64,000 bases of DNA from Candidatus Omnitrophota bacterium (GTDB taxonomy: Bacteria; Omnitrophota; Gorgyraeia; Gygaellales; Profunditerraquicolaceae), in NCBI GenBank assembly GCA_042570405.1, contig JBHPGR010000002.1, positions 5,992 to 69,991 on the forward strand, given 5' to 3'. Within the stretch, counting starts at the first letter, position 1. Each line of letters begins with the position of its first letter. Below are positions 22,896 to 25,584 of the stretch, piece by piece. The translations under genes were made by a program, and so were the position numbers. The notes below the pieces were generated by a model. The model was not told the origin of the DNA, did not search any database, and was given only the letters and a program-made list of their open reading frames with translations.

Positions 22896-25472
22896 ATGAT
22901 TAGCACAGGGATTAAAGGATTGGATAACGTGATCACGGGCCTAAGGGCGGGGGATAACGTAGTCTGGCAGATAGATGATATAAAAGACTATATTGACCTT
23001 GTAAAGCCGTTTGTCAAAGAGGCGCTGAAGCAGAAGAAGAGGGTGGTCTATATGAGGTTTGCCTCGCATAAAGAGGTGCTTAAACCCTTAAAGCGGATCA
23101 AGCGCTATGAGCTTAATGCCCATGCCGGCTTCGAATCCTTTGCCACGAAAGTAAACCGGATTATCACGCAGGAGGGGGAGGGAGCCTATTATGTGTTTGA
23201 CTGCCTTTCAGAGCTGCTTTCAGCCTGGGCAAATGACTTGATGATCGGTAACTTTTTTATGGTCACCTGTCCCTATCTTTACGAGCTGAAGACCCTGACC
23301 TACTTTTCCATATTACGCAACAATCATTCCTTTAAGTCTGTTGCGCGCATCCGGGAGACCACGCAGTTACTGATGGATGTGTACCACTGTGAAAGGAACT
23401 TCTATATTCACCCCTTAAAGGTCTGGAACCGTTATTCTTCCACGATGTTCCTTCCTCATCAAAGAAAAAAGGAAAACTTTATTCCGATTGTAGACAGCGT
23501 AAATGCGGCAAAGTTCTTATCATACATCCGCGAGCACGGAGCAGAGAGTGCCAAGCGCAACCTCGATTACTGGGACCGTTTATTCTTAGAGGCAGAGGAG
23601 CTGCTAAAAAAAGGTGCTCCCAAAAAGAAGATTAAGGCGATGGTTAAGAAGCTTTGCAGCATCATGGTGACCAAGAATAAAAAGATCATGGATCTGGCAG
23701 TACGTAATTTTTCGCTTGATGAGCTGGTTGATATGAAGGCCAGGCTGATCGGTACGGGTTTTATCGGAGGCAAGACTGTAGGGATGCTTCTGGCCCGAAA
23801 GATGCTCGGTAAAAACAGGAACCTTGACTGGCAAAGGCTCTCTGAACCGCACGATTCGTTTTTTGTCGGCTCGGATATATTCTATTCTTACATTGTCCAG
23901 AACCGCTGGTGGAAGCTGCGCATGCAGCAGAAGACAGAGGGAGACTATTTTAAGGCCGCTCAGATCCTGAGGGAGAAGATGCTTTACGGGGTCTTTCCGG
24001 AGGAGATCATGGAGCACTTTCAGCAGATCATCGAGTATTTCGGCTCATCACCGATCATCATCCGCTCAAGTTCTCTTCTTGAGGATGGTTTCGGCAATGC
24101 CTTTGCCGGTAAATACGAAAGCATATTCCTGGCAAATCAGGGCACTCCGGAGGAGAGGTATATCCGTTTTGCCGAGGCGGTGAAAAGGATTTACGCTAGC
24201 ACGATGAGCGAGGATGCCCTGGCTTACAGGAAGCAGAGGGGGCTGGATAAATTAGATGAACAGATGGCGCTTTTGGTGCAGCGGGTCTCAGGGGCGCACC
24301 ACAAGAATTATTTCTTTCCTGATCTGGCCGGAGTGGGAGTCTCCTATAATACTTATGTCTGGAACGAGAGCATGGATTCCAAGGCGGGGATGCTCAGGCT
24401 TGTCTTTGGCCTGGGCACTAGGGCGGTCAACCGCGTGGAAGGAGATTATCCGCGGATGGTCGCGCTTGACGAGCCCCTACGCAGGCCCTATGCCGAGAAG
24501 GATGACCTGAGAAAATATTCCCAGCATGAGGCGGACCTGATCAATACCAAGGAGAATGCGCTTAGGACCGTATCGCTTGAGAGGATAATCAGCGAGAAGG
24601 CCTACAGCGGCATCGAGCGCCTTGCGGTAAGGGACGATGAAGCAATGCGGATGATGGAGCGGGTCAGAGGCAATAAAGAGTATTGGATTCTGACATTGGA
24701 TAAGCTCTTTTCAGGTAACGGACTGGCCGGATCATTCAGTAAGATCCTTAAGGCGCTTGAGCAGAGCTACCGCTATCCGATCGAAATAGAATTTACGGTA
24801 AATTTCACCGAGGATAACGCCTATAAGATAAACCTGCTGCAGTGCAGGCCGCTGCAGACGCGCGGATTAGGCCGTAAGGTCTACATACCGGATCAGGTCA
24901 AAAGCGGCGATAAATTCTTTGAATCACGCGGATATTTCCTGGGCGGGAACATATCGCAGAAGATCGACTGGATAATCTATGTCGATCCTCAAAAGTATAG
25001 CGAACTCGCTTTATCGGATAAGCATGAGATCGCCCGCACAGTGGGAAAATTAAACCGGATGATCATGAGCAGGGAAGAATTGCCTACTCTCTTGATGGGG
25101 CCGGGCAGGTGGGGTACCACAACGCCTTCTTTAGGCGTGCCGGTCAAATTTGCCGAGATCAATAATGTAGCAGTGCTTGCCGAGGTGGCTTTTTCAGCGG
25201 GGAATCTGGCGCCGGAACTATCATTCGGGACGCATTTCTTCCAGGACCTGGTGGAGACTAATATTTTCTATACTGCGCTTTTCCCCGAAAAGAAGGAGGT
25301 CTTATTAAACGGGCAAAAGTTGAGTGAGTTTAACGATCTGTTCGCAAAACTTGTGCCGGAGTCGTTAAGGTATAAGGGGCTGATCAGTGTTTATGATGTC
25401 AGTCAAAAGGGGATGAGGGTCATGTCAGATGTTGTATCCCAGAGGGTAGTCTGTTTTTCCAAAAATGATTGA
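22896..25472 (+). CDS. PEP/pyruvate-binding (PPDK_N ATP-grasp) domain protein with a degenerate RecA/KaiC-like N-terminal domain
   Basis: 858 aa. PPDK_N motifs are GFIGGKTVGMLLA, IIRSSSLLEDGFGNAFAGKYES, MALLVQRV and IEIEFTV. The N-terminus STGIKGLDNVITGLRAGDNVVW resembles the KaiC/RadA lead-in, but no GxxGxGKT follows. No GG.TSHAAI swivel-His motif was found. Confidence 0.6.
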   Translation: MISTGIKGLDNVITGLRAGDNVVWQIDDIKDYIDLVKPFVKEALKQKKRVVYMRFASHKEVLKPLKRIKRYELNAHAGFESFATKVNRIITQEGEGAYYVFDCLSELLSAWANDLMIGNFFMVTCPYLYELKTLTYFSILRNNHSFKSVARIRETTQLLMDVYHCERNFYIHPLKVWNRYSSTMFLPHQRKKENFIPIVDSVNAAKFLSYIREHGAESAKRNLDYWDRLFLEAEELLKKGAPKKKIKAMVKKLCSIMVTKNKKIMDLAVRNFSLDELVDMKARLIGTGFIGGKTVGMLLARKMLGKNRNLDWQRLSEPHDSFFVGSDIFYSYIVQNRWWKLRMQQKTEGDYFKAAQILREKMLYGVFPEEIMEHFQQIIEYFGSSPIIIRSSSLLEDGFGNAFAGKYESIFLANQGTPEERYIRFAEAVKRIYASTMSEDALAYRKQRGLDKLDEQMALLVQRVSGAHHKNYFFPDLAGVGVSYNTYVWNESMDSKAGMLRLVFGLGTRAVNRVEGDYPRMVALDEPLRRPYAEKDDLRKYSQHEADLINTKENALRTVSLERIISEKAYSGIERLAVRDDEAMRMMERVRGNKEYWILTLDKLFSGNGLAGSFSKILKALEQSYRYPIEIEFTVNFTEDNAYKINLLQCRPLQTRGLGRKVYIPDQVKSGDKFFESRGYFLGGNISQKIDWIIYVDPQKYSELALSDKHEIARTVGKLNRMIMSREELPTLLMGPGRWGTTTPSLGVPVKFAEINNVAVLAEVAFSAGNLAPELSFGTHFFQDLVETNIFYTALFPEKKEVLLNGQKLSEFNDLFAKLVPESLRYKGLISVYDVSQKGMRVMSDVVSQRVVCFSKND

Positions 25473-25497
25473 CTTAAGGATTAGCTTATGTTATATT
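25469..25497 (+). promoter_or_regulatory. sigma70-like promoter candidate for the pyrG leader
   Basis: TTGACT (25469-25474, overlapping the upstream stop codon), a 17-nt spacer, then TATATT (25492-25497). Confidence 0.45.
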
Positions 25498-25537
25498 TTA
25501 CAGTGATAGTTCGAAGCAGCACTATTAATAAACAATG

Positions 25538-25579
25538 GCGTTTGAATGGGGAAGTATCATCCCTTCAGGCGCTTTTTTT
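25538..25579 (+). promoter_or_regulatory. pyrG leader attenuator (terminator hairpin + T-run), conserved with the carB leader
   Basis: GCGTTTGAA (25538-25546) pairs with TTCAGGCGC (25564-25572) over 9 bp, followed by 7 T. It is preceded by AACAATGGCG, and the same block occurs at 39566-39615. Confidence 0.55.
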
Positions 25580-25584
25580 ATGCC

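Follow-up and report, generated by a model that had tools for sequence, protein, structure and literature searches.

The RNA target described for ANTAR proteins consists of two tandem hairpins (P1 and P2), each closed by a hexaloop whose first nucleotide is A and whose fourth is G (A1 and G4), and the second hairpin overlaps a terminator (Ramesh 2012, PMC3369931). Such targets are found mostly upstream of nitrogen genes, and seed entries include the nasF hairpins P1 (...CC[AAUGGC]GG..., loop in brackets) and P2 (GGAU[AAAGGC]GUCC), eutP P1 (ACAC[AAUGGC]GUGU), and eutA P2 (AAGC[AAAGGC]GCUU) (Ramesh 2012, PMC3369931). Later work narrowed the smallest unit that is bound to one hexaloop while deeming P1 necessary co-transcriptionally, proposed that P1 and then P2 are bound in succession, and found that a 20-nucleotide (nt) extension of the P1–P2 linker abolishes EutV action (Walshe 2022, PMC8934654). 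Two leaders resembling these targets are present in a 64-kb stretch of DNA from a Candidatus Omnitrophota bacterium (the window, i.e. this whole stretch), one upstream of pyrG and the other upstream of a full-length carB gene. Both are very probably protein-dependent transcription attenuators of the ANTAR two-hairpin type, linked to nitrogen metabolism. Judged from sequence comparisons, the leaders appear to be a real and functional feature that extends the regulon of known ANTAR antitermination, and not a new riboswitch class.

The pyrG leader begins on the forward strand with a promoter at 25469–25497, composed of TTGACT (25469–25474), a 17-nt spacer, and TATATT (25492–25497) with a TG extension. 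Its -35 hexamer overlaps the stop codon (25470–25472) of an upstream PPDK_N-like gene, and together with the carB-leader promoter it is one of the two best forward-strand promoter matches in the 19 kb scanned (22–41 kb). Next, where the transcript is predicted to begin, lies the P1 hairpin (25504–25527), a stem of ~7 bp with a U.C mismatch and a closing C-G pair below the hexaloop GAAGCA (25513–25518); the inverted repeat ATAGT-N10-ACTAT spans 25506–25525. After a linker of 2–4 nt, the block AAACAATGGCG (25530–25540) leads into P2 (25530–25543), AAAC[AAUGGC]GUUU, a 4-bp stem closed by a hexaloop with A1 and G4. The intrinsic terminator (25537–25579) comprises a stem-loop at 25537–25573, with the arms GCGTTTGAA (25538–25546) and TTCAGGCGC (25564–25572), and a U-tract at 25573–25579 (T7 in the DNA), and nucleotides 25537–25543 are common to P2 and the terminator 5’ arm. 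The U-tract ends 5 nt before the pyrG ATG at 25585, which has no Shine-Dalgarno sequence; in many relatives pyrG also begins 5–15 nt past the U-run without one. The operon behind the leader (25585–29931) contains pyrG (25585–27192), carA (27189–28292), and a half-length carB (28270–29931). Thus the promoter, first hairpin, block, terminator with T7, and missing Shine-Dalgarno sequence reported in the initial annotation are all present at the positions given there. The block had been described as single-stranded, however, and instead folds into a small hairpin with a hexaloop, in competition with the terminator. A 17-codon open reading frame (25535–25588) also crosses the terminator, its TGA overlapping the pyrG ATG (ATGA); it is probably fortuitous, as relatives do not keep it.

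The same order of elements is repeated at 39506–39615, ahead of the full-length carB (ATG 39681). The forward-strand promoter (39506–39533; TTGACA, a 16-nt spacer, and TATACT) agrees with the consensus at 11 of 12 positions, P1 (39538–39559) is formed by GGUAGU with a C.U mismatch, a closing C-G pair, and the hexaloop AAUAGC (39546–39551), and a 5-nt linker separates it from P2 (39565–39578), which is again AAAC[AAUGGC]GUUU. From 39572 onwards P2 overlaps the 5’ arm of the intrinsic terminator (39572–39615; stem-loop 39572–39609, U-tract 39609–39615), so that 39572–39578 are common to both structures. Unlike pyrG, carB has a GGAGG Shine-Dalgarno sequence. The genes behind this leader (39681–44413) are the full-length carB (39681–42878) and a DUF1846 gene (42887–44413). 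The window contains two carB genes, the half-length copy (553 aa, the N-terminal half) that follows pyrG–carA, and the full-length copy (1065 aa) with its own leader. Each leader thus has a strong promoter of the sigma-70 type, followed by a hairpin at the 5’ end, the block AAACAAUGGCGUUU, and a terminator with U7. Both fold more stably than shuffled sequence (z -2.9 for pyrG and -4.1 for carB), the window contains exactly two copies of the 16-mer AACAATGGCGTTTGRA, and the covariance model of the leader family described below scores the pyrG leader at E 6e-9 and the carB leader at E 2e-10. The proposed homology of the pyrG and carB copies is supported, as is the earlier reading of promoter-proximal transcription attenuation.

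In both leaders P2 competes with the terminator. In its general form P2 is a 4-bp stem, NNAC/GUNN, around the hexaloop A-N-N-G-G-C, and the terminator 5’ arm opens with seven nucleotides of P2, the loop GGC and the 3’-arm GUUU; because these nucleotides are shared, the two structures are mutually exclusive. Folding assigns P2 alone just -0.4 (pyrG leader) and -0.7 kcal/mol (carB leader), whereas the whole-leader terminator folds reach -23.9 and -29.3 kcal/mol, respectively. Enforcing P2 reduces these values to -13.3 and -15.7 kcal/mol, a cost of 10.6 and 13.6 kcal/mol. With P2 weak and the terminator fold far more stable, termination would be the default, and a factor would be needed to hold P2.

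Relatives of the two leaders were collected by scanning metagenome contigs with a sequence pattern taken from the window leaders, which returned 98 stretches, ~80 of them true members; a covariance model of the family (R1) confirmed the pattern members and added weaker relatives. Covariation in P2 was evaluated in 22 members not chosen for P2 pairing, i.e. the two leaders of the window and the hits derived from the model. In these, 96.6% of stem cells are paired, compared with 35–55% for slid-partner controls, and both the outer pair (AU 8, GC 7, GU 6) and the second pair (GU 8, AU 7, GC 6) vary in identity. The covariation score is 0.42 against 0.29 ± 0.04 after shuffling, and none of 500 shuffles reaches 0.42. 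Stem variants among the relatives include AAAC/GUUU, GGAC/GUCC, AGAC/GUCU, and GAAC/GUUC, and the loop begins with A1 in 71 of 75 distinct members; G4 and G5 were a selection criterion of that scan. In the terminator stem, G.U pairs occur in 27/71 and 13/71 sequences at two pairs and A-U/U-A swaps at another, and the distance between the two arms depends on the inner stem and loop, with a U-run always following. The G.U pairs and variable arm spacing therefore indicate an RNA structure on this strand. An upper terminator hairpin, GCCG-RAYUAU-CGGC with a purine-rich internal loop, is kept in ~65 leaders and is absent from members found independently of the pattern; its conservation is attributed to ascertainment and shared descent, although a second function is possible.

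P1 likewise has a recurrent architecture of ~5 bp with one mismatch, a closing C-G pair, and a 6-nt loop (7 nt in some relatives). The loops are mostly AAAGUA, AAAGCA, or AAGGAA, which follow the A1/G4 rule, and GAAGCG, GAGGCA, and GAAGCA recur. P1 was assigned by inspection and with a second covariance model (R2, below), as an automatic P1 scan missed stems with the conserved mismatch. Pairing of the P1 loop with the terminator 5’ arm was also considered and rejected on account of inconsistent examples.

Comparison with described ANTAR targets supports the same assignment. In the published seed alignment (Ramesh 2012), nasF P1/P2, eutP and eutG P1, and eutA P2 have the same hexaloops as the leaders studied here, AAUGGC, AAAGGC, and AGAGGC. 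The covariance model R2, built from only seven Enterococcus and Listeria eut substrates, has its best match in the entire window at the carB leader (39540–39578, 26.1 bits, E 8.5e-5), where it aligns the 5’ hairpin as P1 and places P2 as assigned above; the second match is the leader of amt (E 2.9e-4). Among 596 kb of related contigs, R2 yields 20 matches at E<0.05, most of them on the P1–P2 region of family leaders, with ~18 relatives scoring below this threshold. Both window leaders display tandem stem-loops at a terminator, 6-nt loops, A1 and G4 in the P2 loop, exclusivity between P2 and the terminator, and a short P1–P2 linker, and an ANTAR gene is present in the genome. The undescribed attenuator or riboswitch suggested by the initial annotation is thus replaced by an anatomy that is known, that of the ANTAR dual-hexaloop target. 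No relevant Rfam family, including PyrR and the glutamine riboswitches, matches the window at gathering thresholds, either leader at E up to 10, or 11 canonical relatives at E up to 1, and no earlier account of this regulon was found in Rfam 15 or the searchable literature.

A protein partner is encoded nearby. Several relatives’ leaders are followed by a gene for a ~235-aa protein with GAF and ANTAR domains according to Pfam, and the window contains a forward-strand homologue at 8794–9522 (GAF_2 1.1e-22, ANTAR 5.4e-18), a candidate trans-acting antiterminator that shares 57% identity with the L116 protein. At its C-terminus it matches the ANTAR structures of Rv1626, EutV, and NasR, and its GAF domain matches, among others, those of PtsP (EI-Ntr) and NifA. 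In EI-Ntr and NifA, this domain responds to glutamine and/or 2-oxoglutarate.

The genes behind the leaders define the regulon. In a tblastn census with Pfam checks of 75 distinct leaders from Omnitrophota contigs, 36 precede pyrG(–carA), 11 carA(–carB), 7 a GAF-ANTAR regulator, 4 amt(–PII–glnA), 3 glnA, and 2 purS; two precede purF/glmS, with one more behind a group II intron, and single leaders precede gltB, argG, gdhA, DUF1846, a PyrK/NfnA-like gene, and carB. A further leader from the model search, L123, precedes a type III glutamine synthetase gene (glnN). None of the 75 is followed by pyrB, pyrC, pyrD, pyrE, pyrF, or uraA. The theme of the regulon is nitrogen assimilation plus glutamine-dependent amidotransferases, and the pyrimidine response proposed in the initial annotation does not agree with downstream genes that include purF, glmS, purS, amt, glnA, gdhA, gltB, argG, and the GAF-ANTAR regulator. 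That annotation had also called for further copies and covariation among relatives; ~75 further copies and P2 covariation were found, with none before the pyrB–F genes or uraA, and their existence points to a protein-dependent, nitrogen-linked system. The seven leaders that precede GAF-ANTAR genes in relatives suggest autoregulation. DUF1846, a protein family of unknown function, carries its own family-type leader in L152 and L153 and is co-transcribed with carB in the window, which tentatively places it in the nitrogen/glutamine regulon.

The leader also behaves as a discrete unit among related genomes. The PyrG sequence assigns the window to Candidatus Omnitrophota, its best match among GTDB representative genomes being 83% identical. 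The leader cassette precedes pyrG in L001, L006, and L007, each time with a different syntenic context. In the closest GTDB relatives, L002, L003, and L013, the upstream PPDK_N-like gene is the same as in the window, but pyrG follows it immediately, with a Shine-Dalgarno sequence and without the leader. The cassette of ~115 nt has therefore been gained or lost as a unit. P2 stems also differ by gene class, with weak AAAC/GUUU stems on amidotransferase genes, and GGAC/GUCC, AGAC/GUCU, or GAAC/GUUC stems, worth about -5.5 kcal/mol, in the amt, gdh, glnA, and nfnA leaders. P2 strength may thus set different thresholds, although common ancestry of leader subfamilies explains the pattern equally well.

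Several observations weigh against the ANTAR assignment. On the pyrG leader R2 scores just 12 bits (E 0.4) in a shifted register, as P1 of this leader deviates. The A1/G4 rule for the P1 loop is broken once in each leader, by G1 in pyrG (GAAGCA) and by A4 in carB (AAUAGC), which is a one-position deviation per leader and not an absence of P1. In a second class of ~17 relatives, mostly before carA, the promoter TTGACA-N14-TGTTATAAT starts the transcript at P2 and there is no P1; such promoter-against-P2 leaders do not fit the classical dual-hairpin requirement. The GAF-ANTAR gene of the window has no family leader in a hexaloop/terminator scan, unlike its homologues in relatives, and another ANTAR protein could be the true regulator, as the view covers 64 kb of the genome. 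Finally, the conservation of GGCGTTT and TATC derives in part from collecting members with a window-derived sequence pattern.

Class 2 leaders with a near-consensus extended -10 are L085, L086, L089, L090, L094, L102, L103, L136, L143, L145, L148, L164, and L177; they precede carA or pyrG, carA being the larger group. From their sequences they would be natural single-hexaloop ANTAR-type attenuators and test cases for the need for P1.

Other explanations account for parts of these data. A protein-independent riboswitch within the terminator, sensing a pyrimidine nucleotide or glutamine, would be in keeping with the lack of a matching Rfam family, with the GCCG-RAYUAU-CGGC upper terminator kept in ~65 leaders, and with the use of glutamine by most of the regulated enzymes. 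However, the conserved core consists only of a hexaloop hairpin with a 4-bp stem, the same as in the binding sites of ANTAR proteins, and leaders found without the TATC pattern (L029, L133, L138b, and the amt and nfnA leaders of the window) keep P2 while their upper stems are unrelated. Pyrimidine specificity is contradicted by purF, glmS, purS, amt, glnA, gdhA, and argG, the known glutamine riboswitch families remain unmatched, and an ANTAR gene is present and apparently autoregulated; a riboswitch is therefore very unlikely. Very unlikely, too, is an independent small RNA gene whose ~75-nt terminated transcript is itself the product, for example an ANTAR decoy like EutX/Rli55, with read-through incidental. 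The strong promoter and efficient-looking terminator would suit such a gene, the terminated RNA has P1 and, transiently, P2, and sequestration of ANTAR proteins by small RNAs has been discussed (Walshe 2022, PMC8934654). Yet pyrG begins 5 nt past the U-run without its own promoter and can be expressed only via read-through, the element stands directly ahead of functionally related genes in many syntenic contexts, and P2 is buried in the terminator of the terminated RNA. A decoy role would in any case be compatible with ANTAR-type attenuation.

Two further alternatives are addressed by sequence variation among the leaders. That the pyrG leader is an unregulated leaky terminator, or that its DNA palindrome is an operator for a DNA-binding repressor, is suggested by the inverted repeat GGCGTTT...AAACGCC just downstream of the promoter, but is highly improbable: the G.U pairs, A-U/U-A swaps, variable spacing, and constant U-run indicate an RNA terminator on this strand, and neither version explains the conservation and covariation of P2 upstream of it. 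Leader-peptide attenuation in the manner of pyrBI or pyrE, in which the reading frame from the ATG at 25535 to the TGA at 25588 couples translation to termination, would explain why pyrG lacks a Shine-Dalgarno sequence, and both the frame and its ATGA overlap do exist in the pyrG leader. The leader ATG, however, has no Shine-Dalgarno sequence of its own and is not kept, most members having the loop AAAGGC, AACGGC, AGAGGC, or AAGGGC; in the carB leader the same ATG opens a frame of just five codons, and indels among leaders are not multiples of three, so that this reading can be given almost no credence. A glutamine riboswitch, suggested by a first set of targets made up wholly of glutamine amidotransferases, is disfavored by the amt, gdh, and glnN leaders, which share only the P2 block, and by the identity of the recurrent ‘GAF protein’ as GAF-ANTAR; a T-box-like reading (CAA/CAG plus UGG) fails as most members have AGG.

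Under the favored ANTAR mechanism, transcription would start ~6–8 nt past the -10 hexamer and P1 would form first, at the 5’ end of the RNA. By default P2 would be too weak to persist, the terminator would form on the P2 loop GGC and 3’-arm GUUU, and polymerase would halt at the U7 run and release an RNA of ~75 nt. Upon activation, the ANTAR regulator, as a GAF-ANTAR dimer, would bind the P1 hexaloop and then the P2 hexaloop, in line with the successive model (Walshe 2022). The bound regulator would keep P2 closed and withhold seven nucleotides from the terminator stem, and the blocked terminator would permit read-through into pyrG–carA–carB’ or carB–DUF1846. The regulator is most likely the GAF-ANTAR protein encoded at 8794–9522, whose binding to the leaders we infer. 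Its GAF domain would read nitrogen or glutamine status, and not pyrimidine nucleotides, judging from the regulon; the ligand sensed and the direction of the response are likewise presumed. It may be speculated that the terminator hairpin of a read-through pyrG transcript could hinder initiation unless protein holds P2.

A broader model can be offered as a possibility, if a rather doubtful one. Here the one-component GAF-ANTAR protein would sense glutamine or 2-oxoglutarate directly and run a global ‘glutamine economy’ regulon by RNA antitermination alone, covering amt–PII–glnA, gdh, and gltB/D together with pyrG, carAB, purF, purS/Q/L, glmS, and DUF1846. P2 stability would set the order of induction, with weak AAAC/GUUU stems on the amidotransferases and strong GGAC/GUCC stems on assimilation, and the promoter-against-P2 leaders would be single-hexaloop antiterminators, which would answer a question left by Walshe 2022.

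The window as a whole is a nitrogen super-locus. Upstream of pyrG are glnA (7334–8665), the GAF-ANTAR gene, a PyrK/NfnA-like gene (9673–10521), a gltD-like gene (10522–11946), gdh (11921–13294), amt (13584–14831), PII (14809–15192), glnA2 (15189–16580), gltB (16937–21475), gltD (21468–22883), and the PPDK_N-like gene (22896–25472). Two additional leaders are interspersed. The first, at 9620–9668 on the forward strand, sits between the GAF-ANTAR gene and the operon of the PyrK/NfnA-like, gltD-like, and gdh genes (9673–13294), and contains GGAC[AAAGGC]GUCC with a terminator that overlaps it and U6; a search of it for P1 gave nothing convincing. The second, at 13350–13569 on the forward strand, precedes amt, PII, and glnA (13584–16580) and has a promoter (TTGACA-17-TATACT), hexaloop hairpins, and terminator-like hairpins. 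Its hexaloop hairpins include ACUAC[AGUGAU]GUAGU (13385–13400), UAUCCG[AAUGGC]CGGAUA (13471–13488), and GGAC[AGAGGC]GUCC (13508–13521), and GAC[GCUGAA]GUC and GGAC[GGCGAA]GUCC are also present. With three hairpin + U-run terminators, the region 13350–13583 resembles a series of as many as three attenuators served by a single promoter. A hexaloop hairpin overlapping a terminator occurs at six sites in the window, four of which are these leaders, whereas shuffled windows contain a mean of 0.5. The interval between glnA and the GAF-ANTAR gene (8665–8794) carries AT-rich direct and inverted repeats (AAATTCTAAAT... / TTTAGGATTTAGTGCTTAGRATTT, twice). Elsewhere in the window, a group I intron (Rfam RF00028, 92.5 bits) is present at 54330–54585, and two tRNA genes (54931–55012 and 55140–55212) lie a few hundred bases downstream of it.

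Many pyrG leaders of relatives contain a second conserved structured domain, located between the U-run and the ATG, in L001 (3871–4003), L095, L098, L116, L125, L129, L131, L147, L155, L163, L165, and L176. It reads UUGAG, a covarying stem A, CAAYUUAYGG, a tandem G.A internal loop with a variable hairpin, CRUAARUUG, stem A’, GAAAUAAUCCCGC, a hairpin, and GCGGGAUAAGGA, the last providing a Shine-Dalgarno sequence. This domain has no Rfam match, is not present in the window, and could be a separate, possibly pyrG-specific regulatory RNA. In L175 (2604–3000), a complete pyrG-type leader extends through the second domain into the initial codons of pyrG (ATGGCAAAGTACATATTTGTAACCGG) and is followed by a purS-like open reading frame and not by a full-length pyrG, an arrangement that may represent a recombined leader or an assembly chimera. 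In L169 (about 1000–2971, reverse strand), a group II intron reverse transcriptase/maturase reading frame lies between an ANTAR-type leader and a glmS/purF-class gene.

What had been suspected to be a new riboswitch thus becomes a testable case of a known mechanism, and what is new is a member and a regulon extension of ANTAR antitermination that is not pyrimidine-specific. A function can be proposed for GAF-ANTAR, an uncharacterised but abundant architecture, in a phylum with almost no genetics. ANTAR-based nitrogen control can extend to CTP synthase, carbamoyl-phosphate synthetase, purF, glmS, and FGAM synthase, coordinating the supply of glutamine with its main consumers, and DUF1846 gains a nitrogen/glutamine regulon context. 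The family also offers dozens of natural variants for the study of ANTAR recognition, including loops that begin with G or are 7 nt long, leaders with P2 alone, and P2 stems that are weak in some leaders and strong in others.

Among known systems, the PyrR attenuators and the B. subtilis pyrG attenuator share with these leaders a promoter-proximal terminator before pyrimidine genes and termination by default. Unlike PyrR attenuators, these leaders have no PyrR binding loop (RF00515 is unmatched) and also regulate non-pyrimidine genes; the absence of a PyrR site, reported earlier, is upheld by the lack of any Rfam match at E up to 10 and of the ARUCCAGAGAGGYU motif in the sequence. The distinction drawn earlier from the CTP-sensitive reiterative-transcription pyrG leader of B. 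subtilis also stands, as a GGGC start and the pyrimidine tract complementary to it are both missing: transcription is predicted to start within ACAGUGAUAG (pyrG leader) and UAUAGGUAG (carB leader), neither with a GGGC-type tract. Glutamine riboswitches (glnA RNA and the Downstream-peptide motif) are similarly tied to nitrogen/glutamine genes, but the Omnitrophota leaders have no three-stem or pseudoknot aptamer and no Rfam match, and their conserved element is a protein-type hexaloop hairpin.

The closest resemblance is to the ANTAR substrates of the E. faecalis and L. monocytogenes eut (EutV), K. oxytoca nasF (NasR), and P. aeruginosa amiE (AmiR) leaders (PMC3369931, PMC8934654). Shared features are tandem short hexaloop hairpins with a short linker, a P2 that shares the terminator 5’ arm, P2 loops (AAUGGC, AAAGGC, AGAGGC) identical to those of nasF, eutP, eutG, and eutA, an ANTAR protein encoded nearby, and a nitrogen-metabolism theme. 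In contrast to these REC, NIT, or AmiC-coupled systems, the sensor here is a GAF domain, a type without a characterised example in the literature consulted, the P1 loops tolerate G1, P1 lies at the very 5’ end of the transcript, and many related leaders have no P1. The targets also differ, being pyrG, carA/carB, purF, glmS, purS, and DUF1846; pyrG, carA, purF, ‘CTP synthase’, and ‘carbamoyl’ are absent from the supplementary files of Ramesh 2012, in which glmS, purS, and DUF1846 were not searched for. Predicted ANTAR regulons with an adjacent regulator gene occur by glnA and gltB in Desulforudis, Carboxydothermus, and Desulfotomaculum (Ramesh 2012 Table S2, PMC3369931). As in those regulons, the regulator gene of the Omnitrophota system lies within a glutamine synthetase/glutamate synthase/amt cluster, and there are several leaders per genome, one of them before the regulator gene. 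A REC-ANTAR protein, GnfR, reportedly acts in a nitrogen cascade of Geobacter. Unlike both the predicted glnA/gltB regulons and GnfR, the system described here is from the phylum Omnitrophota, relies on a one-component GAF-ANTAR protein and not a two-component response regulator, and has a regulon that reaches nucleotide and amino-sugar amidotransferases.

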